A DNA stretch of 49,547 bases, the filler included, from Bipalium vagum (Eukaryota), in NCBI GenBank assembly GCA_037834085.1. It is 3 parts of 3 records of this genome, joined end to end, with 100 filler letters (N's around TTAATTAATTAA, not from the genome) between each part and the next. Parts side by side here need not be neighbours in the genome. Positions count along the whole stretch, not along the records: positions 1 to 16,377 come from JBBMKC010114408.1; 2 more parts are not named here. One strand, 5' to 3'. The first letter of the stretch is position 1, and each line of letters opens with the position of its first letter. The position numbers were made by a program, and so were the translations under genes. This document shows, in pieces, positions 1,864-46,126 of this stretch. The notes under the pieces are model-generated. The model searched no databases, was not told the origin of the DNA, and saw nothing but the letters and a program-made list of their open reading frames with translations.

Positions 1864-2540
1864 TCACTTTTCAAATGTATAATTTTTAAATAGAAAAAAG
1901 TCTTTAAAAATAAAATGAACAATGAAAAATGTAACAAAATGAAAGAGCAATAATTCAGAATACAGGATAAAATAAAATTCCACACTTATAATAGAATCCT
2001 TCATATTTATATTGAATATTTGGAAACTAATATTCTTGGACAATTCTCCGTGTTTGTTGAAAGCCGTGCATGTATATTTATAATTCCCATTTCTATCCCA
2101 GTTTCGTATAACGATTGAAGAATAATCAACTAATAAAAATGAATCTCCTTTTTCTCTAGTCCAAACTATAGTTGGTTCTGGAAAACCTTTCGACGAACAA
2201 GTGATGATACTCTTAATTGTAACTACTGGCTTTGATCCAGTAATTATTAAATCATACGGCAGACTTTCCACTGAAATATCCTTGTAAGTACTAACAACTC
2301 TGCTTGTACCGGTAGTACATGTCACTCTGACATAATTTCCTAAATGTTTCTTAGTTAACTTTATCTGCAATTGACCTTTCTTTTCCTCTATCAGTTGACC
2401 ACCTCTCTCTATTTTAAAATCAAATAATAAACCAGCTTGACATTCTTTCAATTTGGAGATACAAGAAATAGTTTCATCAACCAGGAACAAAACTTGTTCG
2501 TATGGATTTATTAGTAAAGGAGGCGGAGATAATAGACAAG
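1864..2540 (-). CDS. Ig-gene probable last exon: Ig-like domains 7-8 plus hydrophobic C-terminal tail
   Basis: Acceptor atttccag (phase 1). Canonical I/C2-type motif CSSKGFPEPTIVW...YTCTAFNKHG. TGA at 1864-1866 follows an F/I/L/V-rich stretch. Confidence 0.85.
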
Positions 2541-5500
2541 CTGGAAATGAAAAAAGAATTTTTCATCTTTTCCTTCATATCATTTTTATGTATATTAAAA
2601 AAATATATTTTGTCAAAATTATTCGTAAAAACCAATTAAAATTTCAGTTCATTTTAAATTGGATTTGCTCAAATTAAAAATTTTTTATAAAAGTTTAAAT
2701 ATTTGAGTCTTTTTTGTAAATAGTAAAATAACAGCAAATCTTTTTTTAAATGAACTTCTTAGGTAAATATTTGAAATTAGAAACTGAAATATCAAGCTTT
2801 CTATTCGACGTACTTTTGGCTATGGAAATGCCATCTTTGAAAAGATAAGTGCAAAGAAAGTATTTCATTTGTTAAATGAAGGTAAAACATTTAATAGAAA
2901 ACAACATCTTTACAACATTTGAATTGTTTTTAAAAATAAAACTTGTTTTATTTGATTTTTATCCGTGCTGATTTTTATTTTTTAAAATTTGTGGCTATGG
3001 ATGAAACTTGAGTTTATTACCATGATCATGAATCCAAAGATAAGTGCAGAAAATGGACTGCGGGTAGTAGTTCAACATCAAAAACAGATTAGTCAAAAGG
3101 TGTTCGTATCAGGTTTTTGAGATTCAAAATTAATATTTTTGATTTGCGAGTTCCTAAATCTCTCCAAGAAGAAAAACATACAGATAAATATCCATGGAAG
3201 CCCAATACCTAATACTAAGGATGGTACCGATACTTCGATGTAGATAGGGGGTTTAAATTTGAAAAAAATTATCATCATACCAAAGAATCATTGACAAATC
3301 TGATGAGCATAAAACGTAAAAGAGACCTATATCCTTGGGCATTGACTTGTTTAAGAAAGCATGTAATGAGTACGTGCAAAGATCGCGGTGGTCCAAATTT
3401 AGCATGGTAATACATTATTTTGATAAGTACCACAATATTAACATAGTCTTTCAACTAAACAACAACAGCAGAACCATTGCTATCATCCAAACTAGAAATA
3501 CGAGGGTGAATCAAAAAGTAAAGATACAAGCTTTATATATAACATATTTATAAAATATACAGACAATTATTTTTCAACATAATCACCACTTTTTCGATGC
3601 ACTTCGTCCATCTGTCAACTAACTTCTGCATTCCTTTAGCAAAGAAGTTTTTGTCTTTCGCTTTCAAGATATATTGAACCGCATTTTTCACTGCATCATC
3701 ATTGTGAAAATGTTTTCCTCGTAATTCCTCTTTCATGGGTCCAAATAGGTAATAGTCACAGGTTGACAAATCTGGGCTATATGGAGGATGTTCCAATAAC
3801 TCAAAATTTAAATTTCTCAGGGTCTGCATTTTCAGTTGAGCAGTATGAGGCCTTGCATTGTCATGCAGAATAATTACGCCTTCAGAGATCATTCCTCGCA
3901 GCGTGAACTTTACTGCTAGTTTTAGTTTATCCCGCAGAATTTCACAATATCTTTCACTATTCATAGTTTCATCGAATTGTTTAAAGTGAGTCAATAATGG
4001 ACCATCAGAATCCCAAAAGACGGTCAACATTAATTTACTAGCACTCTGTCGGGTTTTGAATTTTTTGGTTTTTGGTGAGCTTGGGTGTTTCCATTCCACC
4101 GTCTGCCTTTTACTTTCAGGTTCATAATGATGTACCCATGTTTCGTCACCAGTGATTATTCTCCTTAGAAATGTTTCATCATTCTTGTATTGATCAAACT
4201 TTTGCATACAGAGTCGTTTGCAGCTTAGTTTTTGATCTTCAGACAATTGTTTCGGTACCTATCTGGCACAACCTATTGTATCCCAGCTCTTTGTGAATCA
4301 TTGAATAAGCTGATCCATAACTGACATCAAGTTTAGAACAAATTTCAGCAACTGTAAGTCGCCTGTTTTTCTGATCATTTCTTCAACTTGTTCAACTGTT
4401 TTCGATGTTTCAGGTTTTCCGGACCGATCTTCATCCTTTAGGCTTGTTCGTCCATTTATGAATTTGATTACCCACTTATTTACGTTTTGTCGGTTAAAAC
4501 AATTTAATCTGTATTGGGAAAGCATTCTTCGATGAGGAAACATCTTCTGCATGCAAAAAATGAATAACAGTCCTTTGTTCTTCTTTGGTGCAATTTTTTA
4601 AAACAGGCTCCATGTTTTTTATCTAAAATTGATATAAAAAATTCCTTTAATCAATATTTCTACGATCAGTATTTCGTATTTAATTGTAGCAAACAAGTTA
4701 AAACGTATTATGGTTTTACTGCTTATCTATGACAATAATTAAACGCTTTGTATCTTTACTGTTTCATTCACCCACGTAAAATCAAATTATTTGACAATTT
4801 TGCAACTCACTTGCTATGTTTTTTCTTATATGAAGAAATTGGAGAGAAGATGTTTGAGATTTTGGTAAATTGTGCAGCTCAGGAATACTGTAAAAACAGT
4901 TGTCTTAAATGGTCGCCTAAACTAAAACCTGATGAACGAAATCCTATTCAGAAGTATTGCACTAATTATTTACCAACAAATAAATAATTGAAAAAAGCCG
5001 GTGACTGTAGAAATTGATATAGGAAAGAATCTTTTCAAGTCATAACCTAATTCCTGATATACAGTTGGCCAACAAGAGGCTTAAAAGATACCTCAGTTTT
5101 TTTTTCTCGAGTCATTTTTGCGGTATGCGGTTTTTCATTATCATGCAATAATATAATGCCTTTTTTGTTGAGTAATGCCTTCTCAGTTTTTTACAATGTT
5201 GACTCATCACAGTTTAGATACTTTGGCATTTCCATTCTCGGCATGTCCAACTAAAGTCTTCAAATAAAATTGTTGGTCCTCTTCATGAGGTATCTTAGAG
5301 GACCTCATTGCTTTTACTGAACCTTTTGAACCATCGCTGGGCACCTCGACCCACAGACCATACCCTTGTCAAACCTTTATTAATTCGCTTGGTTGATTCA
5401 GTGCCCTTCAAACCTACTTTGAAATCTTTTTGATTTAAAAATTGGAGTCAGATCAGATCGAAGAGGGTTCAAGAGTATTTTTTACTTAATTTTTTAATGA

Positions 5501-8500
5501 AATATCAACAAAAATATATTTAGTGTAAAATGAGTTTAACTTTACATTATATATTTTATTATAACAAGTTACCGTAACCATTTTTAAATTGTTTATTATT
5601 GTGCTTTACATTTTTAATGGTACGTTATTTTTATTTTAAATTTTAAATATTTAATAAATTATTTAAATTAAATTATTAAAAATGTTATATAATGTATTTT
5701 TGATTTAATGAGGTCAAAACTGACAACTCCTAGTTTGTTACCTTATAATTATAAAAATGGGCATAAAAATATTTGTATACTGATAAATTTAAAATAATAT
5801 TTCTCAATACAAATTACTCCTATCTTAAATGAAAATAGGGTCAACTGGTCAAATGTTGGCGTAACTGTAAATAAGTTTTCAAAAATTAATTAAAATTTCA
5901 AAAAAATTATAATAATAATTAACAATCTAACATTTGATATTTAATTGGACTGCACTGACCATCAAATCTTTTTCTTTTCGGTCTTTTTCTTCCATATAGC
6001 ATTTAACAAATGTTGCCGATCTAGTTATATCTTTTCCCTCAAATGAATCAGGAACTTGGATTTGAGTACCTTCATATAAGAGTATTCCTGGGTTATCGGG
6101 CTTGGCAGACCTATCTCTGTTTGCATAAAATTGAATTCGTGCAGGTAGACAATAGTAGAGGCTGTCTCCGTCCCAGGACTCTTTTCTCGGTTCTGTAGAC
6201 CTCCGTCGCAATATACAGCATTTGATAATATTTCCCGGATAAATTGTTTCGAATGGAATGTCATAATTATATTTGAATGTATAATTGACTGCGGTATCAA
6301 TGAAATTTAACAATAATAGTGAGAAAGGAAAATATTTACCTACTACTGTAATATCCATTTCCCGCTTGCAGTCTTGACTTGTCAGACAACATAAACGGAA
6401 AGACCAAGCCTTATTCTTGTAGTCTATATCTCTATATATTGGAATTCTCGGTTTCCAAGTAGTTTTGTTATATGGATCGGAATTGTTTTTAGTTGAAATT
6501 TCATATGTTACAGAAAAATCAGTAAATATCAGTTTCGCTGGTAGAGGGATATTTAATGTATAAAAAATGGTTCTCTTTTTACCTATACACATTACAGGGT
6601 CACCCAGGCTGTAGTAATATATTGGAATAAAAGGAGTTATCAAAACTGAACCTACATTTCAAAATAATTCGTATAACATCGTTTATTATAAAAAAATTTT
6701 AAACTTTACATATTCACATAGTTAAAACAATTAAACATTTTTCTGTGGGCTCTGATAAGATAAAGATGATAAATTATACTTTTTTCAGTAAACAAATTAT
6801 TTCTCTTTTTGATTCTTACCATTTATGAGGAAAACTATTTCTTTTCTAAACTGATAGAGAATGAGAAAATACATTCTTTCTGTGGTTGAGATAAATGTAA
6901 GAGAAGATTATAAATTTTTGTGAAAAAATGTTAGTTATTAGCAATGCTTAATTTTAATAAAATAAGCTTTCATAATCCGGCTCGGCTCCCATTATTAATT
7001 TAAAATATACAGGGTTTTTCACAATGTTTAATAACTTTGTCAAAATGTTTTTACTAAATACAAAATTATTATTATTGTTTTAAAAAGTTACGATGGAGGC
7101 TACAGTTTGGTAATTAATGTCCAACTGTTGAAATTTGTTTCAAAGACTTTCCTTCATCGTCATTACAATACATACGATGTAATACCTGATTCACATTTAA
7201 GACAAACAATTGTCCTTATTTCGTTTTATTTTGCCATTTTTAATTGTAGTTTTGATAATTGTAATAATGATAAAAATGAATTTCGTTAAAAAAATTTTAA
7301 ATTATTAAACATTTTGAAAAAGTTATTAAGCATCTCGAACATTTTATTAAAAATTCTGATAAACCCTGTATTAAGAAGTTTCTTGAAAATTACCAAAGAT
7401 TTTATAAATGGTCTTTAGAAAAACCATTTTTTATCACAAGATAAAACAGAAGAACTGTAATTTGGTTAAATAAATTAAAAAGTTTGCCTTTACTTTATAT
7501 AAATATATTTTTTTGAAGGTTATGAACATAAATTGAAAATATAATTCTTTTTTAGTCATAAGTAATCATAAAGAATCTTCTTTCAGTTCGATTGCTAATT
7601 TATAGACATCATTTTGCATTGAACATTTAAGACATTCTCAGCCAAGATCATATGAAAAGACATACAAGGTGTGTCCAATAAATTCCCGGAATGGAGCTAT
7701 TAAAATATACACAAAAAAGACATTTGTTTTTTAATATTTTTCAAAATAGTCTCCTTCCACATCTATGCACATGTGCCATCGCTTCTCTCATGACAGGAAA
7801 TATTTTTTATATTCACTTTTAGGAATTGCTAATAATTCCGATTTCGATTTTTCTAGTGTCATTTCTGGTATCAAAGCTTTTTTCTTTTAGTGCTTTGTAT
7901 TTCTTCCTTTTAGTTTTTTGTATATTCACTACTTTATATTACTAAATTTATTACTATATTACTATTTTATATTTCTGAAGATAAGAACAAAGTAATACCT
8001 GAAATGGTCTTGGTGTGTAAATTACAAAATTGTTTCTAGTATGTGTTATTCAACAAATATTTAATAATTTATCAAATGTTTTATTTAGTTAAAGGTCAAA
8101 CCCACTAAAATCATTAATAATCCTATCATCCTTGAATTGAACAAAATGTTTTCCGAAAACATTATTTTGTATTAATGTTATTATGACAATGAATAATACA
8201 GTAGAGATATGAGTTATTTATTAATATTATTATTTCCGATGTTATTTTTTAAAAAACATAATGTTAAGCAAGTTACTTATTTTACAAGAAATGTAAAAAT
8301 ATTTTACCGTAAATTTGAAGAGGAAATTTTATTTCTGTCACTATTCTGTACCCTATCAATCCTCGACAATAATAATCTAAATTCATATCTGAATCGGATA
8401 TGATTTCTAACAAGGCTTTTCTATTCGATTCAAGCCTAATAACCTTTTGTAATTGTGATATTGAGCAAGAATCACAATTCCATTCAACCGTTAAATTCTT

Positions 8501-11500
8501 TAAATTGGAAACACATTCAAAAGTAAATCCTTTCAAATGCTTCTCGATGGGAGTAGTAAAGTTTGGATAAATATTATAAATACTGATAAGTGTTTTTTCT
8601 ATTTAAATTAAAATTAATTAAATTAAACAAAATAATTATTAATAAAAATTATTAGTTTTCTTATTTTTCATTTCATTTAATCTAAATACCAACTGACCAA
8701 TCTTAATCAATGGGTTGAAATACAATGAAACTCCGTTAATCCGAAAACGGTTGTAAATATATTATATATATTATATATATATATATTATATAATATTAAT
8801 ATAATAATAATTTAATAACTAATAATAAAATCTGATAATTCTATAAAAACTTATATATATTTTTTTTTATTTTTTTTATTTATATAAAATAACTACAAAA
8901 TAATTGATCAACACAAATTACACATTCAAAACAAATGTCCAAAAGAATACACGTATAACAAGTAATCACAGTAAACAAATTGATCATGACTCTAACCACA
9001 ATTAACTCAAGTTTCACAAAAATGAAATAAATATGAAACTGTTGATGATCACAAATTATTAATCAAAATTTTATCTATTAGTCAACTTTAGAAAAAAGAA
9101 AATTAAATGAATAAAACGCTTACCGCTTTGCTCACGGTGGGTCCTCGAGTCGTTAGATGACTTCAAACTTTTACCAATTTAACAATGATATAACATTTAA
9201 TTTTTGTGTAGTTTTTTTAAAATTATCATTAGAGTTTATATTGACATTCACGGGATTTTGTAATTTAGTGTAAGTCATGATTGTTGCAAGGAAATATCGC
9301 AGCTTTAAAAAGTTCCTGATATTACACCATGTTTTAAATGACTAAATTTTTTCCAAATTAGAGGAGACATGACGAGAAGTCTCCTTCACGCAGAACAATG
9401 TACAAGTTGATTGCACTGCTTAAACAGGAGAGATAGTCAGTTTTTGGTTAACCAAAGTACTGGACGCCCATGTGAAATTTCTGATAAATTTAAAGATAAA
9501 TGTGAATCTTTACTGCGAGAAGGTCGTCGAATCACAACGCTAGCATTGGCTGAAGCTGCTAGTGTGAGCAAAGGAACCATACAAGCAATCCTGTATGAAT
9601 TGGGGGTGAGAAAGGTGGCGTCCAAATTTGTTGTCCGTTTTCTTTCACCAGAGATGTACGAGAATCACCTGAAATGGTCTCAGTCAAACCTCCTTCTTTT
9701 CCAACGATTTGATATTATGCACTTCTGCGTAATATCAGGTATATGAAGAAACATTTGCGTGTCAAACATTTTGCAAATGCTGAAGGTATAATAGAAGAGG
9801 TAGAAAGTTTTAGTTCTCAGTGATCAGTCCTCAGATTTCTTCGAAAGTACATTCTCTGAACTCATCAAGCGTTGGCAAAAGTGTTTGGATTTAAATGGCT
9901 CTTATCTTGAAAAATGATGTCTGCACATGTTATATCTTATTGTGTAAAAGTTGAGTGTTTCCTAGCTATTGCACAGATCACATATTTATATAAACCCAAC
10001 ATTAGTATTAAGCTTGTGTTTGAATTTCAATTAAAATGCACTACGAACAATGTTCTAACCTAATTGCAAAAATCTAATAAATTAAGAGATCTATTTATAA
10101 TAAAATTAAATATCAAAAATATAATAGAACTAATTTTTTTAGCTTAAATTTCTTAATTTAAACGGTGCAAAATATATTTCTTAATATCTAATTCAATCAA
10201 ATTAAAAATTAATAATTTTTATCAAAAATTTTATGTTATATATGTAAATTCATTAGATTATAATAATAATTTAATCGATCTTACTTCCAATTTCAAGTAC
10301 TACTGGAGTTCGCATATTTTTATTTTGATCAAAGCATACCGCAAAATAAAAGATAATATTTGATTTATTTGATTTATTCAGGGAGACATTTTTACTCAAA
10401 ATATATGAAGTTCGATATAATTCTGAAAGAGGTAACTGAGATTCGACATGAGTAAAAATTTGTATATTATCTGTTGGTACCAAGCAAGCCAAGTTCATTA
10501 AGTTATTTGTAATAGGCGTAATTTCAGAAATTGAATTTGCTAAAATGTTAATTTTAAGTTATTTTTTTAAAGAAATTTTTTAATTTAATAATTATTTTCT
10601 CTACCACAATTAAAATTTTGAAAAACAGTCTATTATGGCAATTACATTCTTAATTATATATTAATAATTTTTGTTTTAATCAGGTGCCATTTCTGTCTAT
10701 AATTTGATAAGTAGTTCAAATAAATTAAAATTTTTTTATGAAAGTTAGGGACCTAAACTGCAGGATTACCCTAGTTACATGTTATGAAACAATATTATTT
10801 ATAAATTAATGCAAACTTATTGGAATAACTTGACTTAAAAAGTCCTTGATTAAATTGAATTTAAATTATACAGTTTAAACAAATTTTTGATTTTCACAAA
10901 AAATTCTATTACCTTTAAACCGAAACTAGTTTTACAATCAAAATTTAATTTTTTAAATCTTCATGGAACTGTATTAATTCAAAGTTTTATTGAATTCGAA
11001 TTAGAAGAACAGATTTTATATAGTGCCAAAGTTTTATATAGATAAGTGACAAACAACCTGTATAATGAAGGTATTTTAATTAATAATAATTAATTAACAA
11101 AGAAATAAAATATTACCGACACATTATAATATTTCGGTAATATTTCATTTTTTTGTACCGAAAAGTGACAATAACGAGTCAAATAGTGAACTATAACTCA
11201 TAAGGTCTGATAGTTATAGTTAATGTTCTATCATAACCAATAATAATAATTTTCAAAGATTTGATTGTTAAAATTGTTTACTTAATAATATTATGTCAAT
11301 TCCATGAATTTCCAATGGCTTAGAAGCGAACTCTTGGACAAAACAGCATAAATGAGCAGCTATTGGGGGTTGAAAATTTGGTTGTGAATTAATAGTTAAA
11401 CGTTTTGCAACAGGTTGGAGTAGACTTTTATCACTTGAATTAATCAATTTTATCATAATTTCTGGCTGGTATACGGCAGGTGAAATTTCGAAACGGATAT

Positions 11501-14500
11501 TTGTATTCTTAAATGCACATTGTATAGTTTCCCCAACATCAAACTGAGTACGACCCGGGCGTCTATTAGCATCAATAATCATCAGCTCATATTTTGCTAG
11601 ATAATAAAGAAATAATTTTAAAAATTTTAATTAAATATTTATTATTTTTTCAAATAAAAATCAAGTAGGATATTCTAATTTTCAATGCTTGATTTTTATT
11701 TTCAAGAATCCTTTATTGTATATTTGCATGATTGACATGAAAATTTACATATTATGTTCTTAGAAAAATGTACTGTCAAATGAGTACACCCAAGTTTACC
11801 AATCAAATGAAAATTGAAGAAATTCGTGAATATGCAAAGACTGGATCTACATGAGACTACGAAAAGTGAATTTTTAAGTTTATTATTATAATTGTAAAAA
11901 AATTATACGAAAGGCAGTTCCAGTTGTTGTTTTCTGTCCTTTTGCTGGTAATGTTGAAACGGTTTTCATAAATTAGAATAATTTATGAGTTCATCGGTAA
12001 ACCAGAATTTTTTAGTATTACTGTTTTTATTGATAATAGAAGTATGTTCATACTACGACCATGAAAAACAAAAGAAAATAATTAATAAATTTTGTATCTT
12101 TTCTTAATTTTATTTACATCATCTGAACTGTTGATTGGCTGCTCTTCTTTAGTTGGTGCTCAAGCCCTGAAGTCGTGATTCACCAAGATATTATAGTTTG
12201 TGGACTATTTCATGGATTTGATGTTTAGAGTTTAAGTTAGAGATAAGGTTATTTTCTTCATTTGGATTTCGTATTCTGGGTCCCAGTATCAGACTGATCC
12301 AATATTAATCAAGTCTAATGAAATTTCTGTGTTACTTTTGCGGAGACTTCCACCTTCAGTTCAACCAAATCAACCAAATCCTTCGAAATAATAACATTGA
12401 TTTTAAACATTGATCATTTATTGATTTATTTTGTGTAGTTTTACTTTTTATGTACAAAAAATATAATTTTGTGTGATTTTATAAACTTAATTATTTAATT
12501 ATTACATTTAAAATTTCAAAATAAACAAGTACAAACAAACAAACAAGTACAAAATAAAATATAAAATTAATTAAAAAATAATCATTTTGATGATTAATTT
12601 GTAAAATATTCGGAAAAAATTGTTTAGTAAGATAAAGTTACTATAAATAATTTTTTCAACAAAATTTTTAATAAATATTTCTAAAAATAGATTTATAGCG
12701 AAAATTTTAAAGGTAAAACCTAAAAATAGTACCATAAGGTACTAAATTTAAAAATATAAAAAAATAATATAAATACTGAAGCAATTCAGTAATAGGTCAC
12801 AAACGAAAAATAATATAGACGCAGAGAAAGCTTTCGAAAAAAGGGATCAAGCGAAATCGACGACAAAATCATCAAGCAAAATTAACAACAAAATCAGCGA
12901 CGAAACCAACAAAGCCAGGAGGTAACGAACGGACAAATTCAAAGTAAACAAGTGGTTTATAAGCACAAAGGAGAATTTTTTTCAAATAGTAAAATTTATT
13001 CCTATTTTTGTTAAGTTTATTAGATTTGACTAAAAAACTATTTAAACTATTATTATTAAATTAAATAAAAATATCATATTTTTTGATTTCACACTGCTTG
13101 CAGGTGATTTGATAATCAAATAAATATTAGTAATATAAAATTGAAACTACTAATTGGATAACGAATTATAATTTGTTAATTTAATTAAACTTTATAAGTA
13201 AATACTAAAGGTTGGACAGCTTCTTCAACACTTTAGGATCAAATAAACTTATGTTTTTTACTGATTTCCCAGTATTTTCTTTTTTCGCGTCCTTCACGTC
13301 AAATAGGACGGAGAACCGAATTTTTATCTGAGGCCCCTTGAGAGTAGGATACCGAAGGGTGATCTGACTTTTCTTAGCAATCTTCACATCTCGGGTTTTA
13401 GCTCAAAAACTATTTTTACCAATAATAAATGTTACATTTATTTTAAAAATATATTTTAGTGAAAAAATTTGTTATTTTAATTTATCTTTGTCACGTTTTG
13501 CAATCGAATTTATATTTAAGTTGTCACTCAAAAAATTTACTCCGTTCATACGCACACTAAAACCTTCAGAGTTGTAAACAGTTTATGTTAAGTTGCTCGA
13601 AAGTCCAATATCGGTATTTTTAAATACAACAACACTTTTTTCAGCAACACTTTCAACACCAATTTTATCTGCAAGGTTAATTGTATTTGAGTTTTTTTTT
13701 ACTGTTATTCTAGAAGTTTTTTGGACTGTCATGTGAGAATTTCAGGTCTAAAATAAGTATTGTGTGTTTGTCAGGGTTCTGAATCACAAAGTCTAGCCGG
13801 AATGTAGTATCAAATTCTGACGTGACTCAGTCATTGTCCACAACATGAGTTTTCTCTGATGAATACAAAGAGTGAGACTAAAAATTGCTCTCAGATTAAG
13901 AAAACTAAGAATGATAACAGAAGAAAACATGGGTACTCAGTGGATAATAGTTGTTCGTTTGTATGATCATACATTAGATAACGATTATTTAGTGTAATGT
14001 TTATGTAATATGGATTATGAATAAAAGAGTACATATTTGAATAAAGGAATACATTTAGTATATTTGATTTAGAGTTACTAACAAACCAGTCGATTTTGCG
14101 AGACTTATCATTTTTAATTGATTCTATTCGTAAATAACAGTGTTGCAAAACGTATAGTTGCAAGAATAATGCAGAATGAAAGGATATTTAGAAAAATACA
14201 AAGACATTATTCAGTTGCATTAGTTCATGATTGTAAGAATATTGTTTGGTTAGCCAAAGGCACGAAACCCTATTATAATAATAGTGATGATAATAATAAT
14301 ATTATTATTATTAATATTAATAATAATAGATATATTTTTCTGTAGTCATTGTTAAGTAATAATTCAAAATCAAAGCAATAATTATATATTTCATTAAATC
14401 CGATTAATCAAACAAACTTTTCAAACTTGGACATCACCTTTTATTAAAATTAAATTATTTTATTTTATTATTTACTTTTTAAAAATTTACTAACATATAT

Positions 14501-15092
14501 ATTATATATTTAAAAATTTTAAAAAACGTTACATTATAATTTTTTAAACTTTAAATTAAAAAAATTTAATAATTGTTAATTTAGGCGTGAGGTCTAATTT
14601 TAAAAAATTCAAGGAAACTAATTTTTCGAATCACTCCTTATAATGATAATAATAACAAATAATGATAATAAATAAAAATTATGGTAAATAATAATTATAG
14701 TAAATAATAATAATAAAAATAATATCAAATTCCCAAATAACACAAATTTATAGAAAGAATTCACTTACTTTCGATAAAAAATTTAAATGACGACTGTATT
14801 TTATACTCTCTTTGATTCAAAATATATGTGAGTGAGCATGAATATTGATTTAATTCTTTTTTAGAGTTAACAACTGTTGATATTACATCTAACTCAATTA
14901 TTAATGATTGGCCTTTGGTAAAGTCGGAGTAACTATTAGACAATATTTTATTCCATTCAATTTTAGTTTTCCATCTAACATTTATTACACACGGAATTTT
15001 TTGACCATGGGATAAATAAATATCTGGAAGATTAACAGATTTATTTCTTTGATAATCGCTATATAAAGCCAAAACTTGCAATTTTGGATATT
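1864..15092 (-). CDS. Multi-exon gene for a cell-surface glycoprotein with >=8 tandem divergent Ig-like domains and a C-terminal hydrophobic segment (5' end incomplete). Exons: 14769-15092, 11282-11596, 10285-10539, 8308-8598, 5932-6651, 1864-2540
   Basis: All five introns are GT-AG and phase 1. Internal exon lengths of 324, 315, 255, 291 and 720 nt are all multiples of 3. Junction codons ACA, ACA, AAA, GGT and TCT contain no stop, giving about 860 codons of continuous ORF. Each repeat has an Ig B-strand Cys and F-strand Cys. The last domain is canonical (ITCSSKGFPEPTIVW...GNYKYTCTAFNKHG). Many N-x-S/T sequons are present. Confidence 0.85.
2988..3155 (+). mobile_element. Decayed mariner transposase fragment
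   Basis: FVAMDET*VYYHDHESK...W and KVFVSGF*DSKLIFLI resemble the mariner motifs T(G/M)DETWV..YDPESK and KVMASVFWD; in-frame stops. Confidence 0.6.
3501..4776 (-). mobile_element. Full-length (1276 bp) DD34D mariner element with a frameshifted transposase, in the last intron of the Ig gene
   Basis: TIRs of about 30 bp (CGAGGGTGAATCAAAAAGTAAAGATACAAG vs CGTGGGTGAATGAAACAGTAAAGATACAAA), each flanked by TA. Motifs TGDETWVHHY, HDNARPH and YSPDLSTCD with exactly 34 residues between the last two Asp. ATG at 4613. The ORF is broken into several frames. Confidence 0.95.
5040..5480 (-). mobile_element. Internally deleted mariner remnant
   Basis: AQRWFKRFSKSNEVL*DTS*RGP (HTH/GRP region) joined to ILHDNEKPHTAKMTREK (HDNARPH region). 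Confidence 0.7.
5932..6651 (-). CDS. Ig-gene exon, Ig-like domains 5-6 (SVLITP...LGDPVMC...FRLCC...PGNIIKCC...TFVKCY...QLNIK)
   Basis: Acceptor aaatgtag, donor T|GTTAGA, phase 1-1, 720 nt open frame. Confidence 0.8.
7010..7368. mobile_element. Tc1/mariner-type MITE (359 bp)
   Basis: TIR CAGGGTTTWTCASAATKTTTAATAA at both ends, TA on both flanks, no transposase. Confidence 0.7.
7665..7890 (-). mobile_element. 3' end of a mariner element
   Basis: SELLAIPKSEYKKYFLS*EKRWHMCIDVEGDYFEK (mariner C-terminus), followed by a TIR-like TA-CAAGGTGTGTCCAATAAATTCCCGG. Confidence 0.7.
8308..8598 (-). CDS. Ig-gene exon, Ig-like domain 4 (KTLISI...FTFECVS...TVEWNC...LDYYCRG...PLQIY)
   Basis: Acceptor ttaaatag, donor G|GTAAAA, phase 1-1, 291 nt, C...W...YYC pattern. 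Confidence 0.85.
9270..9917 (+). mobile_element. Internally deleted mariner (HTH region fused to C-terminus, catalytic core lost)
   Basis: STGRP...RRITTLALAEAASVSKGTIQAILYELGVRKVASKFVVRFLS, then MKKHLRVKHF...LIKRWQKCLDLNGSYLEK*. Confidence 0.75.
10285..10539 (-). CDS. Ig-gene exon, short Ig-like domain 3 (NSISEI...MNLACLV...FAVCFD...VVLEIG)
   Basis: Acceptor cattttag, donor A|GTAAGA, phase 1-1, 255 nt. Confidence 0.8.
11282..11596 (-). CDS. Ig-gene exon, Ig-like domain 2 (KYELMII...FDVGETIQC...AHLCCFV...IDIILL)
   Basis: Acceptor tattatctag, donor A|GTAAAC, phase 1-1, 315 nt. Confidence 0.8.
14769..15092 (-). CDS. Ig-gene exon, Ig-like domain 1 (YPKLQV...GQKIPC...KIEW...QYSCSLTY...FKFFIE)
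   Basis: Acceptor ttttgcag, donor A|GTAAGT, phase 1-1, 324 nt, C...W...YxC pattern. Confidence 0.85.
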
Positions 15093-15384
15093 CTGCAAAA
15101 TTTTAAGATACAATAGGAATAAGAATAAGATGAACTCAGTAGATTATCAAAAACTAGCAAAAAATCAAAATTTTGAACAATAATAATGATTATAATAATT
15201 ATTATAATAATAATCATCATGCGGAGACTCAAAAAGAAATAACAATTTTATGATGTTTATAAATGATTTTTATAAACATTCTATGTGATTTTAATGATAT
15301 AATTCTTTACTTATTCTTTTGCATTCAGTTTCATTCATGTGTATGTAAAATAAGAACCTCTGTAAAACAAAAGCATGTAAAAAT

Positions 15385-16377: not shown

Positions 16378-16477
16378 NNNNNNNNNNNNNNNNNNNNNNN
16401 NNNNNNNNNNNNNNNNNNNNNTTAATTAATTAANNNNNNNNNNNNNNNNNNNNNNNNNNNNNNNNNNNNNNNNNNNN
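16378..16477. other. Assembly gap with artificial six-frame-stop spacer
   Basis: 44 N + TTAATTAATTAA + 44 N = 100 nt, identical in layout to the second gap. Confidence 0.95.
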
Positions 16478-16873
16478 ATCGAAAGGGGGTGGTCTTCCAC
16501 CACGATAACGCAAGGCCACATATCAGTTTGATCACTCGCCAAAAATTGCTCGACATTCGGTGGGATGTTTTGCCACATCCACCCTATAGTCCAGATCTTG
16601 CCCCTTACGATTTTCATCTGTTTCGCTTCTTGCAAAACTCATTGAAGGGTATAGCGTTTAGTAATGAGGGCCTTATCAAAGAGCAGCTTGAGAAGTTCTT
16701 TGTAGAGAAAAACGCAGACTTCTATCTGCGAGGAATAATTAAGCTACCACAAAGATGACAGATGGTAATTGATCAAAACGGGGAATACATAATAGACTAA
16801 TTTGTTTTTGTTATATTAAATAAATGTGTTTATACTGTGTAATAAAAACGCACTGACTTTTTGAACAACCCAA
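16478..16873 (+). mobile_element. 3' half of a DD34D mariner (5' part lost in the gap)
   Basis: RKGVVFHHDNARPH...HPPYSPDLAPYDFHLF...KLPQR*QMVIDQNGEYIID*; TIR ...CGCACTGACTTTTTGAACAACCCAA-TA. Confidence 0.9.
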
Positions 16874-20316: not shown

Positions 20317-21581
20317 CAATCTGATACATTAAATTGTCCAGTAAAAAATTACAACATTTATATTATATGTATATTATATTTATATACAGAAAACAATATA
20401 TTGTTAATATTTAGTATATCCTCCAGCTGCATCGGTTATTTCGAAAAGCCTTCGCTCCATAGAATCTACAAGGCTGTACCCGTAATCCAAAAATCCTGAC
20501 ACTTGCTGAACAGTCAGATGTAGTTGGCTTTATGAGAATATGATTAAGCTGGTGTTTCATGCACCCCCACACATTTTAGATGGGGTTAGCTGATTGCTGA
20601 CCACGGCAGAAGAGGTACGTCTTGATCATCAAACCAATGTCTTGTAAATTTGGCAGTATGGATTGGTGCATTGCCTTGCTGGTAGAATTCTAGGTTGTTC
20701 ATTTGATCGACGAAAGGAAGGAGGTTCTGTTCTAATAGCTCAATATATTCTTCAGAATTAAGCTGCTGTTGAGTAATTACTGTAACCATTTCTAGAAAAC
20801 GATCCCCACAACATGTAGTGACATGAACTTCTGCTTGGAAAATGGGTAACAAACCGATCCTGAAGTCTAGTGCTTTCCCAAGCCATAGGAACTATTGTCT
20901 ATTATTCATCTGGAACTTTGATTCATCACTGAAGATGATTGCTGACGAGTTTGTTTGGCGATGCTGTTGTGCCAACAAGAAACGCGCTGCTTTTTGAGCC
21001 TTTGAAAGGAATAACTTGTGTGCTGGAGAAAAAAACCCAATATCCTTCGAGCGGCGATTGATCGTGTCATATGATACTTTTTAGATTGCAGACAAGTCTG
21101 ATGCTACTTTCTGAGTTCCTCTGAAAGGGATGTTGTTTTAAATATCTCGCAATATGCCTGTCAAACTTATTTGTTGTTTTTCGCAATCTCTTACATTTGG
21201 TACGGTTTCCTTCATGTAGTAGATCATTATTAATATTTCGCTAGCAATATTTAATGACATCAGACAGTGTCAGATCAAGAGTACTGCTATCTCTTCATAT
21301 ATCCATTCCGCATGTTTGCGTAATGCATAAATCTGTCCTTTGTTAAAAGGCGTTAAATCGAAATGACACATAATTTGACGAGTATACGGGAAATTAAACT
21401 AAACTAATACTCTAGCTGAATTATGAAGCAAAATACACTTACGTGGTTCTACAAAATGAATTGAAAAACTTTATATTAGAATTGACAACTATAAATAATC
21501 TGATATATTTATTTAAACAAATTTATTTAATTGAAAAAGTATTGAATATTTTGTACTGGACAATTTAATTGTATCAGACTG
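20317..21581 (-). mobile_element. Full-length (1265 bp) decayed Tc1-like element
   Basis: TIRs CARTCTGATACA(A)TTAAATTGTCCAGTA, each flanked by TA. Motifs IFSDESK, QQGNAPIHTAK and LPWSAIS*PH. Multiple stops and frameshifts. Confidence 0.9.
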
Positions 21582-23968: not shown

Positions 23969-24004
23969 CTGTCCATATTAATCGTGAACGCTGGATAATT
24001 TTGT
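23969..24004 (-). other. Candidate 36-nt exon, possibly the first coding exon of the Ig gene
   Basis: Strong sites tttttgcag| ... CAG|GTTAGT; ends ATG GAC AG. Confidence 0.4.
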
Positions 24005-24668
24005 CTGCAAAAATAAATTGAACTTTACTGATATTTTTTGAATTTTTTTATTAATTTTATAAATAAATTAGATATCGAGAAAAATTTCTTTCAATTTGGA
24101 ATTAATTTAAATAAATTTTTTAAAGGAAATAATAATTTTAATAAATGATTCAATTAAATAATTAATATGTAATCGAATAATTTTTTATTTTTTATTAATA
24201 AATTTAAGTTTAAAAATTATTTAATTAACCGATATTAGATAAATACTATATTCTATTTCCTCAAATTATTAAATAATTGAATTGAAAATTTTAAAAAAAA
24301 TTAAAAATTAAACACAAATAAAATTATAAGATATTATAAATTATTATAATATATATATTGTTGTTTATTCTGAACATGTAAACGACAGTTTACTATTGGA
24401 TCAATAATGACAATGAAATAATGAAAATATTTGATTGAAATATGATTTAATATATATGTGTGCCTATTGGCCGGTGTGTGAAGTCGGCAGATAACTGACA
24501 GATAATGCGTCAATTAAATCAAAATAGATTCAAATATCACCCTATCATGTAATATACAAATTGTTTAAGTCACTTATTTTAACTTATTAAGTAAATCAAG
24601 ATCATTAAAATGATAAATAGAAATAAGATAAACAGATCAGTATTATTAAATTATTTACATTTTCAGAA

Positions 24669-27055: not shown

Positions 27056-27574
27056 AAGAGTTATTCGATTTAATAAGTATCATCATTCAATTTAAAAAGG
27101 TTCATTAAAAAAGTGTGAAGTTCGATTGTCGCAGCCATCTGTGTCCCGAAAACTTAAGAAATTAGGATTTACAAGAGAACGATATACCAAAATTTCTGTA
27201 GATAGAAATTCTGAAGCTGTATAAGCAAAAGAGCCACCTGTGCGACAACCGTAGGTCAAATCCATCAAGATAAAATAGTGTTTTTGGATGAATCGGGATT
27301 TAATGATCATTTACAAAGACATTACGGTTATTCGCCAATCAATCAAAAGGCATATAAGACGGTTGTAAGCAACAGGAAAGTTAACAAAAGCCTGATATGT
27401 GCTATAAGCAAAAATGGAATTGTAGCATTCGAATATCGCATTACGAGGTGCATATAACAAGAATTTGCTAACATCATTTATTGAGGAAAAACTTGCATCA
27501 TATTTTCTAAAAAATTGTAAAAATTAAACACTTGTTAAATTGAATAATGACACTTATTAAATTGAATAACCGTG
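27056..27574 (+). mobile_element. Internally deleted IS630-like (IS630/Tc1/mariner superfamily) element, 519 bp
   Basis: TIRs of about 45 bp (consensus CACGGTTATTCAATTTAATAAGTGTCATTATTCAATTTAACAAG), each flanked by TA. Peptides VRLSQPSVSRKLKKLGFTR and IVFLDESGFNDHLQRHYGYSPINQKAY...SLICAISKNGIVAF...GAYN. Confidence 0.8.
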
Positions 27575-32211: not shown

Positions 32212-32311
32212 NNNNNNNNNNNNNNNNNNNNNNNNNNNNNNNNNNNNNNNNNNNNTTAATTAATTAANNNNNNNNNNNNNNNNNNNNNNNNNNNNNNNNN
32301 NNNNNNNNNNN
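32212..32311. other. Assembly gap with artificial six-frame-stop spacer
   Basis: 44 N + TTAATTAATTAA + 44 N. Confidence 0.95.
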
Positions 32312-32993: not shown

Positions 32994-34089
32994 GAAAGGC
33001 TGAAAACTATGCATGAAGGTGAATTTCTTCTTTTTTTGTAGGTCATAAAAAAACATTGTTACTTTTAGGTTAAAAAAACATTGTCTAAAATTTTTTAACT
33101 GTATTTATTGTTGTCAGAATTATTATTAATATCTGATCAACTTCAATTCAACCTAATTTTATTTCGCCAGTAATTGTGAATGACTTAGTATAAACTATTG
33201 TTCACGGAACAGTAATAACTATCTATTTATTTCTACTAATCAATTCTTATAAATACACATTAAAGCTCGAAACTCTAATATTAAATAACTTTCATTTTTT
33301 CTTAATTTCAGATCAATTTCTTTTATTTCTCATAATTAGCATACTTATTATGGTATCGATTGTATAATCTTCAAAGTCTTTTGAGATATTGATAGAAATA
33401 TCGTACGAGAAGATTCTCTACTTTTATTAACCGAAAATTTTGTGGTATTCTCACAATGATCATTTGTACACAATATCGATTCTGTAATTAAAAATATAAA
33501 TTATAAACTCTGTTATTTTAGTTTGCTTTTTTATAAAAATACACGAACACGATTTTTTAAAAACCTTCTAAACGTTAAGATCTCAGTCGACTTTTTGATA
33601 ATTAACTTCACTTTTTGAGAAAACTAACACGTTAATAGATAAATGTTTCACTTATGACGAAGACAGTGATATTGAAAATTATAATAAGAAAAGGTAGTGT
33701 ATATCATATAAATAATCATAATATTTAATTTCATATTAATAGTCATAACAAAATAATCACAATAATATTTTTAAAATATTATAATTAGCAATGTGACTAA
33801 CATAAAATAAAAATATTATTTTTATTACTTTCATTTTCATTATGCCCGGATTCGAGGCTTTTAGTGATGCATTATTGATGAGATGAATGATGCGATATAA
33901 ATGACGGAAAGTTGATCAATAGGTTGTTCTCAGTCAAATGCTGAATCCATAATTAAAGCTCCCAGAGCTCCATTAGTTAATGAAAAAGAGGAGATAAAGG
34001 GAAATGAATGAAGATATGTGAAAGGAGATGGTTGAACGGGTACTATTTGCCTTTTTAGACTCAATTGAATGCGTTCAAACTGAGTCCAT

Positions 34090-34277: not shown

Positions 34278-34700
34278 GTGAGTAGGAGATTTCAAAAAGT
34301 TTTAAGAAAATGTTGGGAAAGGTCTTGTGACCAAATAGATTTTAAAAAGATTTTGAATTTCAAGAAAGTTTGAAGAGAAATTAATAAGATTTTGAGGAAA
34401 GATTTTTTTAAGTAAAAAATTTTGAGAAGATCTTAAAGACTTCGAACAGTTTTTTAAATTCCATATCACTGAAAAAATTTTATAATATCAACATTACTTT
34501 AATATTTTATTGCGTATTCTTATTTTTAAATTTAAAATCAATCGTAATTTATTATTAATAATTTTTTCAATTTTCATTATATAATATATATATTTAAGTC
34601 TAGAAATTCCTTTTCTAGAATTTATTTTTTCGAAAATATTGTTTTAATAATTAGCTTAATTACTTATTCTAGGTTGTATTTTTCAAATTTATTTGATTTA

Positions 34701-35303
34701 ATGAAATCTTCTTTTTTAACTAACCATTGTAGTGATATTCGCAGTTCTTTTAACACTCCGTTAAAAAGAAAACGAAATATATGTTCATCTGAATATGATG
34801 AAACTAAACGAAGACGTATCGCTGGTGTAATAAATGATGAAAATATATGTTGTGAAACTTATGATCAAGTCAACTATGTACCTTTTCCAAATCAAGCTAA
34901 AATAAATGGTGTGATTATTGAGGAAATATTAGAAGATGAATTGGTTGATAATAAGGAATCCACTCAGATGTCAATTGATGAATTGTAATATTCTTATATT
35001 TCTATTCTAATTTAAATTTCATTTAGTCATGAAGTTATTTTAGCTCCTGAGCTGATTAAGTATCTCGATAATTATCCTCTTCAAATGCTCAGAAACAAGT
35101 AATATTGTTAATTACGTTAATATCTTTGAATCATTAATTTCAGAAATACAGATAATAGAGCTCTTGTCTTATATAAGCCTATCCAAAGTATATACCAGGA
35201 AAAAACAGATTTAAATGTGAAATTTATTGACGATCTATCATTTAATTTAAAACAACCAATCAATGAATCTATGGAAGAATGTAAAGACGTTGAAATGGAA
35301 TAA
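34701..35303 (+). CDS. CCDC117: CCDC117-like small acidic nuclear protein, 3 coding exons (34701-34984, 35027-35098, 35144-35303), 171 aa
   Basis: Introns of 42 and 45 nt (GTAATA...TAG/CAG) keep the frame. Features: basic KRKR...KRRR, acidic EEILEDE, VILAPEL, the family-like ALVLYKP (cf. MELVLWKP) and C-terminal DVEME. AATAAA at 35319. The symbol is from motif recall, not a search. Confidence 0.65.
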
Positions 35304-38759: not shown

Positions 38760-39360
38760 AGATATTTATATGACTGATTTATGGTGCATCAATTTAAGTG
38801 TATCTAATGGAGTAGACTTTATTGTTAACGGAAATTGTTTTCCATCTGTTGTTAGAAGTCTGATATGTGAACATTTTGAAGGTCGAAATTTCAGATGAAG
38901 CCAAGGTGATATTTCCACAGCTTGGTCTATTAGTTATTGCATGAAAGGTATACTTGTGTTTAGAAGAACGATATCATCTGCATAAGCCAAACAGCTCAAT
39001 CTGATTTCATTTAACAAGGGGTCCCGAATTGTCCTCTAGGTCCTTTTCAGGTCACCTATAGATTCCCAAACTCGCTGGGTCTCTTTGGTAAATCCTTTTG
39101 CATGTCTATAATAAAGAATAAAAAAACTACTGGAATCTTAGGCTCCTGAAGTCATCTCTGCAAATATCTTCAAGCGAATAACAACTTCGGTAATATGTCT
39201 TCAACTGAAAATGTTCTCTCCTATTCTTGGTGGCTTTCTGGGAATATCCGTCTCTTTATGTAGTCGTAGAGATTGGTCTACGATCACCAATCCATGCGCT
39301 TTGAGACGGCTTTTTCCCCTAATAGCCATTAATTCTAACGTTATCTCCGCTCTGAGATAA
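38760..39360 (-). mobile_element. Decayed non-LTR retrotransposon reverse transcriptase
   Basis: DPLLNEIRLSCLAYADDIVLL...LHLKFRPSKCSHI, with YADD at 38973-38984 and a downstream L.F.P.KC motif typical of R2/NeSL-type RTs; stops present. Confidence 0.8.
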
Positions 39361-42550: not shown

Positions 42551-44281
42551 ATAATGAAAATTCATTAACACTCGAAAAAACGATTGGTGAATTATTGATA
42601 ATTGGAAAAAATTTAGACGTCAACCCAAAGTAAAGTTTTGTCACTTACCGAACAAATCAAGAAGTAACGAACTTTTTCGACAAAGAGAAATTATCGGTAA
42701 GAGGGATCCTTTTTCACCGTCAGAGTCTTCTTATAATGAAATTAAACAGACTTAGCAAATAATCAATTTTTAAGTTTTATGTATAAGAATGATTTTGTAA
42801 AAGTAATTTTGCTGATGAAAAGACCAGGGATAATAACTGATGACAAGGAAACACATCGGAATAAATTCTTTGAAAAATTTTGAATGACACTTTAAGGTTG
42901 TATGAAAAATCACGAGTCTCTTATTGGAAGACGGTGAATGTTGATTAACTCAATGATATTTTTCCACTTTTATATATATTACTAAAAAAAATTTTGACCA
43001 AGTGACGGTCAAATGTTTAACAACTCTAATATACCTTTCTTATTTAACAGTAAATCGATCGTGTTGTGTTGCAATATTTTTTTACATTTGTATAATTGTC
43101 CATTAATAAATACATTTTTAATTATAATCGATTATAGAAAAATTCGTCAATTAGATTTTTCAGCTTTCGGAAATCATTTGATAGAAGAAAATTCGGATTT
43201 TACCCAAAATTTAACAAATCATTTTTTTAATAACATGAAGATATTAACAATAAAAATCGTACTATTTATTTGAGAGTTAATTGATTTCATTTTTCTGGAT
43301 GTTAATAGTAATCAGATTTTAATCAAATTTTTCGAATACAAAATTTCTTCTAAGTCAATAAACAATTTATATTATTATAGAAGTCCGTTGAAAACCCATT
43401 ATACACTGTGATTTTTATTTGGTTTACCACTCTTCAAATTTTACATATTAATATGATATAAATATAACTTTAATCTATAAAGACCAAAAGTTAAATAAGT
43501 ATCAATTCTATTTACAGCTAAAAAACTAAATTTTGTCCTCAAATTTAAGGATCATTATGATAATTATTTTGACATTCTCTTTATTCGAATGTCATTTAGA
43601 AATAATTAACTCGTGACATTATTTTTCGTAATAAAAAATATTTTAAAAATTTTAATTCATTAAAGTTTTTTAAGTTTTAAATTTTTAAAGAGTTTGTTTT
43701 GATGATCATAAAGTAAAGTGATGTGAAAAATAAGTAAGTTTCTAATAACAGACTGTTAATAAAACTTTATTTTGGTTAAGATTACATTTGATGAAATTTG
43801 AATCATAAATTTAATTAAAATTTATGTAAATTCTATTTGGAGAAGAATTTCAATTAATATAAGTAATAATTTTTCTATAAAATGACAATGTAATTCAATT
43901 TAGACAGAAAAATCTGAAAACGATAGAAAACCTTGATAAAAACGATATAGTTTTACAGATTATATTCTAAATATCTAATAATTCAATTAAAGAGAATGTA
44001 GTTTTGGATGAAAGTTAATATTAAATATATTATTAAAAGTTAATTATAATTAAAGTCAATTAATATAAGAAAGTATACAATTTTTCAAAATTTTATTTTA
44101 AATGTGAACTATTTTCAATTCCAGACAACTATAAAATTATTGGTTAAAAATAAATATGCAATGTGTTTCTTTTCTTTATTTAAATTAATTAATTTAATGG
44201 CTTTGTTTCAATTAAATAAATTCAGAGATTTTCAAAAATTAATTCAATATTATAAATTTTAAAATACAACATATTTAGACG

Positions 44282-46126
44282 ATGGACAACTCTGACTTAT
44301 TTTTGTATCAATCAGATAACGGAGGAACAGAAGATCAAATGTATATTATTGCTGACGATAGTAATATGCAAATGGAAGAAATCCCAAGTTATGGTATAAC
44401 AGATAGTGGAGAAAACATAATCCAGGTAAAATTTAATTATTTAATAAAGCATCTCCATGCATTGTTTACATTAAGATCACTGAAAGTGATGGCCAGCTGC
44501 CTGATATCAACGCGGATTCCTATATACTGTATGATGAAAACGGACAGGCATATATAGTTGAATCAAATTCCATAGAAAATAATTCAGATATCAATAACAA
44601 CTTAGATATAAACAATGGGAATAGTAAACTTGTGACATATCGGTGCCCATCCTGTACACTATCTTATCAGAATGCTAACGCGTTTACCAAACATATGCGA
44701 GAAAAGCATTTTGTGAAGGTATTTACTTGTAGACAATGTGAAGATTTCTTCGAAAATCTCAGCCTTTTGTTTCTTCATGCTCGTCGAACGCATGTTGATC
44801 CCAAGAAGCCACGTAAAAACCCGTCAAATTTTAAATTCCACTGTCCCGATTGCGATTATATGACCAACAATGGCGGTACCATGGAACATCATCGTCGTGC
44901 CCATTCTGGAGTGAAACCATACAAATGTGACATTTGTTTCAAAATGTTCGCCCAGAAAGCCAACATGAAGACCCATAAGAACCGACATATTCACAAAGAT
45001 CGAATATTCCGCTGCGATACTTGTAACAAGTCGTTTAACAGCCACGACATTTATTTAGCTCACTTAAGAACGCGCGAGCACGAGTTACAGGAGCATTTTC
45101 AGATGATTGTGACATCGAAAATTAGAATTAGGTGTATGGGTTGCAATGAAGTCTTTGAAAATTACTTTTACGTCAATAAGCACTCCCGATCCTGCGAAAT
45201 CCTGAAGAGCCTGGAAGTCAAGTATTGGTGCATACAGTGCGACGAAGGCTTCAGTAACTCAACGGCTTTGAAACACCACTTGAAAAGTCACGGAGGGAAT
45301 CAGATCATCACGTGCCCTGTTTGCGGGGAGCGCGGATTCCCCGGTTTTAACCAGCTCAATCATCACATCACCCGGGCTCACGCACTGAAAGTCAACAGGC
45401 GGAATGTGTGTCGTTATTGTGAAATGACATTTGAGAGCAAAGAACTTTTGGACGATCATATTGACGATATGCATCACTCGGAAAAGAATGCCCGTCAATC
45501 TCGTGGGGCTGCTGGTCGATTACGATGTCAGTTTGACAATTGCGACTTTACATCCAACTCCGTCATGCTGATGGACCGTCACCGGGACCAGCACATCAAC
45601 AACACGCTGCCGCTGAATCGTGGGGAAGTCAAGCCACGAGGACGCAGACGAAAAATGATGCCGACCATTCAGTTGTCAGATTACGAGAAACAGGAAATGG
45701 TGCTCGACTCAGAAATCGAGCATTACAGCTCAACGGTGGAATATAACGAAATTTTACGCGATGAAGAATACGATTTGAATAACGATTTTGTCAAGAGCGA
45801 AATGGTTGTGTCGACTTTCAAAAAAGTCAAGCAAGCATCATCACCAATCAAACCGAAAGAAAGTATCGATGATATGGATATTGACGATTTGGAAAGATTG
45901 GCAACATCGTTTGGTAAACTTTTCCTTTTTATTTTCTTTTTTGACTTTTGTTCCAGTTGAAAAACATATACCAACGCCAAACGAAGGTAAAAAGAAAAGA
46001 GGGCGTCCCCGTAAGACCCCGGTGCGATTCGAAGATTATGAGGTATCAGATTTGGAGGCCTTAGCCGGTTTTAAACACCCAGTCGTCAAAGATGAAAACT
46101 TTGAGACCAATGGGTGGTACAACTAA
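44282..46126 (+). CDS. Zinc-finger transcription factor, 583 aa, with 10 fingers (9 C2H2, 1 C2HC) and a C-terminal AT-hook. Exons 44282-44425, 44476-45913, 45957-46126
   Basis: Introns of 50 nt (CAG|GTAAAA...TAAG, phase 0) and 43 nt (G|GTAAAC...TTCCAG, phase 1) join three ORF-track fragments in frame. HSGVKPYKC linker, acidic N-terminus and KKKRGRPRK are present. Confidence 0.9.

Follow-up and report, generated by a model that had tools for sequence, protein, structure and literature searches.

The minus strand between positions 1864 and 15092 of a 49,547-nt stretch of Bipalium vagum DNA (the window, meaning the whole stretch that was analysed) carries a scatter of open fragments, and it raises the question whether these form one gene and, if so, to which family of surface proteins its product belongs and what role it may play.

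Gene model and the missing 5' end

The spliced multi-exon gene behind 1864..15092 is real. An earlier note had joined six fragments into one stop-free frame through five phase-1 introns, and this join holds: all five junctions are canonical GT...AG and phase 1 exactly where they had been placed, the five exons upstream of the terminal one measure 324, 315, 255, 291 and 720 nt (all multiples of 3), and the translation runs for 859 aa to a single terminal stop. The exon count was nevertheless one short: the 720-nt exon contains a further, sixth intron, 51 nt long and in frame (6339-6289; GTAAAT...CGCAG; phase 1), and at its place the alignment with homolog P0097 has a 17-residue gap. Since this intron splits the exon, the corrected model consists of seven exons and six canonical introns, with 842 codons (842 aa) free of stop or frameshift:

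14769..15092, minus strand: exon 1 of the recoverable part, domain W1 (splice sites and frame; Ig profile against shuffles)
11282..11596, minus strand: exon 2, domain W2 (frame; family repeat profiles against shuffles)
10285..10539, minus strand: exon 3, domain W3 (splice sites and frame only)
8308..8598, minus strand: exon 4, domain W4 (matches tapeworm domain 6)
6340..6651, minus strand: exon 5, domain W5 (alignment to P0097)
6289..6339, minus strand: 51-nt in-frame phase-1 intron (GT...AG ends; gap in P0097)
5932..6288, minus strand: exon 6, domain W6 (alignment to P0097)
1864..2540, minus strand: terminal exon with W7, W8, stalk, membrane helix, 14-residue tail and stop (Pfam; homologs)

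All six internal exons are phase 1-1 and all seven acceptors are phase 1. With two domains and the membrane helix sharing the terminal exon, one-domain cassettes do not make up the whole gene. Between 1801 and 15200 of the minus strand five phase 1-1 exon candidates of at least 240 nt were counted, against a mean of 0.03 in 200 block shuffles (maximum 1 in any shuffle), and the same five loci are the only such candidates on the whole minus strand of the window. GC content is lowest at codon position 3 in every one of the seven exons, while codon-usage scores ranked the true frame no better than the other frames.

As exon 1 starts on an acceptor, it cannot be the gene's first exon. The missing 5' part is likely situated within the following gap or past it:

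16378..16477, no strand: assembly gap 1.3 kb upstream of exon 1, made of two runs of 44 N with a 12-base spacer between them

Upstream of exon 1 neither the exon scan nor the profiles revealed a convincing start or signal-peptide exon in the window. Two candidates were rejected, namely a piece at 33351-33500 (E=0.03), which lies past two gaps and lacks the opening motif found in several domains, and an ATG at 15220, which reads into a poly-Ile repeat and would require a poor donor. The introns themselves contain transposon pieces:

3548..4597, minus strand: broken mariner transposase inside the last intron (3551-4258 matched by Transposase_1 and DDE_3 of Pfam)

The part at 4301-4597 has no Pfam match and is assigned to mariner by position only. 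A 98-codon frame at 13891-14187 was not accepted as coding, having no Pfam match and a length about that expected by chance.

These transposon pieces, the start codon not found in the window and exon joins predicted from sequence would all suit a gene that died or was truncated recently, or exons united only in silico. Such an explanation is highly improbable in view of the 842 open codons and six canonical introns, and the missing start is accounted for by the assembly gap.

Domains, membrane helix and tail

The recoverable protein comprises eight domains, of which the last, W8, is a clear I-set-like Ig domain (Pfam score and cut-off 31.4 and 30 for Ig_3, 30.3 and 27 for Ig_2, 25.5 and 23.7 for I-set), while none of the seven others (W1-W7) rises above the Pfam Ig cut-offs. 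With a generic Ig profile four of the eight (W1, W4, W7 and W8) outscore all 200 shuffles. In an Ig domain one expects a pair of Cys on strands B and F, separated by some 45-75 residues, and a Trp on strand C 10-15 residues past the first Cys. Cys pairs spaced 43-73 residues are present in all eight domains, on a predicted strand assignment, and Trp stands at the C-strand place in W1, W4, W8 and possibly W6, is lacking altogether from W2, W3 and W7, and comes later in W5.

W1 (107 aa; Cys34/Cys85, Trp, Y-x-C) scores 7.8 bits with the generic profile, above 200 of 200 shuffles. W2 (104 aa), which carries the opening motif, gives no signal with that profile and exceeds all 200 shuffles on two family repeat profiles built without it. 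The weakest supported domain is W3 (84 aa; Cys18/Cys68), with an under-cut-off match to Pfam LIF-R Ig-like (E=0.12). W4 (96 aa) contains W-x-C-x-x-C; W5 (103 aa) shares 34% identity with P0097 across 50 aa, and W6 (118 aa) 28% across 117 aa (E=2e-10), where P0097 continues from the W6 counterpart into the next domain in agreement with the predicted splice. The opening motif, ascribed earlier to most domains, was seen in only four of eight, by a pattern written after the sequences were seen, and in none of 1041 open pieces elsewhere in the window. The domains other than W8 are probably also Ig folds, each stabilised by its Cys pair, and further disulfides specific to the family would add to these. 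The protein also carries 12 N-glycosylation sequons.

1909..1971, minus strand: predicted membrane helix (hydropathy 1.96), spanning residues 190-210 encoded by the last exon

A comparable helix is present in all six homologs examined. W8 is the domain nearest the membrane helix, and Pfam found no FN3 match in the window exons or in the tapeworm proteins described below. The tail has 14 residues (8-10 in tapeworms) and no ITAM or ITIM, motifs seen in none of seven tails. A GPI anchor is less likely, as polar tails of 8-35 residues past the helix favour a membrane span. No signal peptide was found in the window; the N-termini of tapeworm proteins P0152 and P0170 are hydrophobic. The multi-Ig surface protein outside any named family that the earlier note described is borne out as a predicted type I membrane protein of repeated Cys-pair domains ending in a clear Ig.

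The short tail, together with one Glu and two His in the predicted helix, the Glu and His being kept in P0001, brings to mind a ligand-binding subunit that pairs with a signalling partner through polar helix residues, like short-tailed immune receptors. This is unlikely, since of the helices examined those of P0016, P0098 and three tapeworm proteins lack Glu and His, and adaptor pairing usually proceeds through a receptor Lys or Arg.

Relatives among flatworms

The gene had been called an orphan, but it has relatives over its last four domains and membrane helix, and full-length tapeworm proteins share its layout. Identity over the last exon is 25-57% (P0001 57%, P0016 31%, P0097 31%, P0098 25%, tapeworm proteins 26-33%). 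The tapeworm set includes Schistocephalus solidus A0A0X3PGW2 (P0170), Spirometra KAL7057384.1 (P0152) and VZI04163.1 (P0075), and Dibothriocephalus latus VDN39199.1 (P0151); these are unnamed "Ig-like domain-containing" entries. The Spirometra and Schistocephalus proteins have 1019-1045 aa, a signal peptide, about ten domains and one membrane helix. Common to them and the window protein are the last two domains, stalk, helix and short tail, the W-x-C-x-x-C domain four places ahead of the last, the opening motif (5 of 10 tapeworm domains) and the detection by Pfam of the last domain only. They differ in possessing the signal peptide and, on the N-terminal side, roughly two domains beyond those of the window part, and in domain 8, which lacks Cys. 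Collinear anchors are W4=C6 and W8=C10, with W7=C9 weaker; profile-profile alignment of the shallow domain sets was negative except for W4-C6.

In a tree the window protein clusters with seven homologs, set off from seven generic Ig regions with 99/98 support, with the caveat of long branches and of the seven having been picked by similarity. The family profile gives P0170, left out of its construction, 272 bits against 44 bits for the best generic protein. Among proteins of 570-2000 aa it matched 2 of 6086, P0075 and one domain of a fish CD22, and a search with P0152 matched 2 of 7997, both tapeworm. The 10 best named Atlas feature matches of P0170 all fall in the Ig clan (0.92), as they likewise do for a third of shuffled proteins. 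The 239-aa exon found none among 394 longer-protein candidates and none in the Atlas, the relative P0097 (325 aa) being outside the length range. No trematode or taeniid appeared among 10 named matches from the best 150 of 521, and 14 metagenome loci were rejected as relatives, being generic Ig or IGFBP-like domains of at most 30 bits. The literature searched assigns no function to the tapeworm proteins, and six Schistocephalus accessions had no match in the supplements of proteomics papers, including the accessible part of PMC8609239. On sequence similarity the gene is a member of an unnamed, unstudied flatworm family that belongs to no named one.

It is rather improbable that the gene is a strongly diverged ortholog of one of the Ig adhesion proteins conserved among animals (nephrin/NEPH, contactin, L1, Dscam, Sidestep or the like). 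The closest PDB structures are indeed Ig adhesion proteins, with neurofascin, contactin, Robo and Dscam nearest to the last domain, but these matches span that one domain, and the missing FN3, the tails of 8-14 residues and the gap between the profile scores of P0170 and the best generic protein all speak against it.

The earlier note also envisaged a polymorphic self/non-self receptor. Identity among tapeworm proteins is spread evenly over the chain, at 64-78% for 9 of the 10 domains, with no hypervariable outer domain. Between Spirometra records 12 of about 930 and 2 of 303 sites differ, and between two from Schistocephalus 4 of about 980; within one genus the tapeworm copies resemble one another at about 99%, in few individuals. 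Neither tblastn nor profiles revealed a paralog or alternative exon in the window, in any intron, the gene's own contig being only about 16 kb. Together with the lack of ITAM, ITIM and FN3 matches, this makes an allorecognition role unlikely, and allele-specific cell-cell binding in the manner of Hydractinia Alr1/Alr2 is very doubtful. On its side stand Ig-like domains that have diverged strongly and carry additional conserved Cys, like those of the Alr proteins in the accessible part of PMC9546547, the non-tapeworm relatives that are only 19-39% alike (one pair excepted), and rejection in planarian chimeras, the sensor of which goes unnamed in the accessible part of 10.1101/2025.03.28.645876. 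That the family multiplied and diverged in free-living flatworms into a polymorphic, partner-signalled code behind rejection of planarian genotypes, with tapeworms retaining one slow copy, is a long shot; if true, it would be an independently evolved Ig-based histocompatibility molecule, and a polymorphic protein required for chimera rejection would name the planarian self/non-self sensor.

Proposed role and comparison with known Ig systems

The product is probably a fast-diverging, flatworm-specific, single-pass membrane protein of the Ig superfamily with at least eight tandem likely-Ig domains and an adhesion or spacer role. Its binding partner would be carried by an opposing cell or by matrix; the lost 5' exons would supply a signal peptide and about two domains, after the tapeworm proteins, and with about 4 nm per Ig domain the chain may reach some 35-40 nm off the membrane. 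The outer domains would do the binding, and signalling, if any, would depend on a partner protein. The phase-1 exons that carry one domain each may record growth by exon duplication, and they would permit skipping, which itself is only a possibility.

Since animals commonly have divergent multi-Ig proteins encoded by phase-1 exons, the surprise is modest. With this locus a gene model becomes available for a family of large flatworm surface proteins in which Pfam recognises a single Ig domain, common to this AT-rich, likely free-living and probably planarian flatworm and diphyllobothriid tapeworms, usable as an RNAi and localisation target and including a possible parasite surface antigen.

ICAM-5, CD22/Siglec and CEACAM types are type I membrane proteins with Ig-only ectodomains, tandem Ig on phase 1-1 exons and N-glycosylation. 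The window protein resembles them in its predicted layout, tandem likely-Ig domains, exon phase and sequons; it departs from them in having no orthology, W1-W7 under all Pfam Ig cut-offs, a very short ITIM-free tail and extra Cys. L1, contactin, NCAM, Robo and nephrin place FN3 after the Ig domains and have a long tail or GPI anchor, whereas here and in the tapeworm relatives Ig stands beside the helix, with no FN3 match and a minimal tail. Arthropod hypervariable Dscam combines a multi-Ig ectodomain, tandem mutually exclusive exon arrays, FN3 and a long tail; the multi-Ig ectodomain on modular exons is shared, while alternative-exon arrays (in any intron), FN3 and the long tail are not. Hydractinia Alr proteins, according to the accessible part of PMC9546547, consist of V-set, I-set and Fn3-like modules, are encoded by clustered genes with tens to hundreds of alleles, and many carry ITAM or ITIM. 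The window protein differs in its at least eight domains, in lacking an FN3 match and ITAM/ITIM motif and in showing no cluster in the window; since the Fn3-like part of Alr is also missed by Pfam (same source), it is the domain count that carries the difference in layout. As far as that source goes, both are alike in being single-pass proteins with extra cysteines and Ig domains too divergent for standard profiles.

Gene model and its surroundings

Within the window (GC 26.7%) the candidate multi-Ig gene (1864-15092, minus strand) had been described in the earlier note as a stop-free frame of about 860 aa. All five splice junctions claimed for it (14769/11596, 11282/10539, 10285/8598, 8308/6651, and 5932/2540) proved to be GT-AG and phase 1 on the minus strand, and the joined exons of 324, 315, 255, 291, 720, and 677 nt give 859 codons and a stop. 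A blind scan of the entire minus strand for phase 1-1 exons of at least 240 nt returned precisely the five claimed loci, while shuffling the gene region locally 200 times yielded a mean of 0.03 such exons (maximum 1), and the third codon position has the lowest GC in seven of seven exons. The gene model is thus no product of chance.

The 720-nt exon contains a further in-frame, phase-1 intron of 51 nt (6339-6289, minus strand; GTAAAT donor, CGCAG acceptor), and in alignment the homolog P0097 has a 17-residue gap at this site. The revised model comprises 7 exons, 6 introns, 842 aa, and 12 sequons. The gene stands as an observation, refined by the extra intron, the absent start, and a rarer opening motif, while its interpretation holds in part.

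Exon 1 opens on an acceptor, and neither the exon scan nor profiles found a start or signal exon upstream of it in the window. The gap at 16378-16477 follows a TAA repeat; the 5' end was therefore likely lost there, and sequence past the gap may be non-adjacent. This gap and that at 32212-32311 are identical, each of 100 bases, with a palindromic spacer of 12 bases (stops in every frame) between two runs of 44 N; the window probably consists of three contigs joined together, so neighbours across the gaps may be unreal. Side observations in this region and the other features of the window are as follows.

Side observations and other features of the window
15093-15220, minus: ATG 130 nt ahead of exon 1, followed by poly-Ile that an ATT repeat encodes; possible as a signal exon only if spliced from a poor donor across an intron of 43 nt
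13891-14187, minus, intron 1: 98-codon open frame that ends in a hydrophobic stretch and may have a phase-1 acceptor; conceivably an alternative last exon, yet its length and codon score match chance
about 23970-24005, minus, past the first gap: possible 36-nt phase 1-1 micro-exon, good acceptor, GTTAG donor (by eye)
44279-46126, plus: multi-exon C2H2 zinc-finger gene, 507-codon open frame, at least 6 fingers; exact sequence absent from the protein collection
9411-9746, plus: decayed mariner/Tc1-like transposase pieces (by eye)
16426-16758, plus: similar piece (by eye)
20586-20891, minus: similar piece (by eye)
27215-27457, plus: similar piece (by eye); of four run against Pfam, the only one above cut-off (DDE_3, 27215-27454)
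about 5100-5400, minus: similar piece (by eye)
about 7700-7900, minus: similar piece (by eye)
about 38900-39300, minus: broken non-LTR reverse transcriptase-like piece, YADD-like motif by eye
about 34700-35300, plus: small gene that looks spliced, acidic at its end and with a basic KRKR stretch; nothing in Pfam matched

Domains and fold

After revision each internal exon carries one domain (W1-W6, counted from exon 1), and the terminal exon carries W7, W8, stalk, helix, and tail. The opening motif (I/L..P...(Y/F)..G(D/E).I.C-like), which the earlier note claimed for most domains, is present in four of eight by a pattern composed after the domains were seen, and among 1041 open pieces of the window no other has it. 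A Cys pair 43-73 residues apart occurs in every domain, Trp is absent from three, and extra cysteines, such as that at the start of W7, are common to the gene and its relatives.

W8 is above the Pfam cut-offs for Ig_3, Ig_2, and I-set. On a generic profile of 350 Ig domains, from which family sequences were left out, W1, W4, W7, and W8 exceed all 200 shuffles; W2, W3, W5, and W6 fall short of this, as do 7 of 10 tapeworm domains. On two family repeat profiles built without it, W2 outscores every shuffle. For P0170 (Schistocephalus solidus), Atlas features suggest the Ig clan (0.92), which is weak evidence given the rates of the tool itself. On this sequence evidence W8 is an Ig domain, the fold is supported for four further domains, and W3, W5, and W6 would presumably share it.

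Relatives and isoform-like records

The named relatives are flatworms, and the gene encodes a divergent membrane protein of the Ig superfamily, from a flatworm family not yet characterised. FYMINK is 0.35-0.39 in the set of non-tapeworm homologs P0001, P0016, P0097, and P0098, like the AT-driven composition of the window, and 0.26-0.33 in tapeworms. A planarian host is quite probable, in keeping with the low GC, the mariner elements, and an intron of only 51 nt. No paper on the family was found in the full-text literature, which omits most subscription papers and was searched by text, not by sequence; PMC12090676 names other Ig-like accessions, and the six Schistocephalus accessions are not in the supplements of the proteomics papers checked (one nearly empty). 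The Schistosoma genes Smp_164760, Smp_171460, and Smp_035040 are listed as IgSF in PMC9016452, and a trematode ortholog may exist.

The six Schistocephalus records span 722-1064 aa: one stops after domain 8, two after domain 7, two are without a signal core, and none skips a single inner domain. Since the UniProt entries for this species combine predictions from genome and transcriptome (PMC8400842), these variants may reflect alternative splicing or intron retention. Those ending after domain 7 run on with Cys-Lys, which, judged from protein letters only, would fit a phase-1 GTAAG donor read through at the domain border. P0174-P0177 are without a membrane helix or signal core, as possible secreted or cytosolic splice forms.

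Proposed function and comparison with allorecognition proteins

A long chain of disulfide-held domains with one membrane helix and a short tail would be an adhesion or spacer build. The outer domains would bind a partner in the matrix or on an opposing cell, and signals would pass only via another protein, a reading that we infer with somewhat better than even confidence.

The earlier note had suggested a polymorphic self/non-self protein, by analogy with Ig-like allorecognition proteins of invertebrates, and this appears very improbable. Non-tapeworm relatives are 19-39% alike, apart from the pair of the window and P0001 (52-64%), and the contig of the gene is too short to exclude a paralog cluster, both of which would suit such a protein; however, Spirometra records differ at only 12 of ~930 and 2 of 303 sites, and two Schistocephalus records at 4 of ~980. 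Between these genera identity is 64-78% in nine of ten domains and 37% in domain 8, which lacks Cys; a hypervariable tip is not seen in this comparison.

In planarian chimeras a rejection-like response is described, with no sensor named in the available text (10.1101/2025.03.28.645876). According to PMC9546547, the Alr allorecognition proteins of Hydractinia lie in a cluster, exist as tens to hundreds of alleles, contain an Fn3-like domain, and often carry ITAM/ITIM; none of these marks was found for the gene described here, with no FN3 match, no paralog or exon array within the window, and tails too short for ITAM/ITIM (0 of 7).
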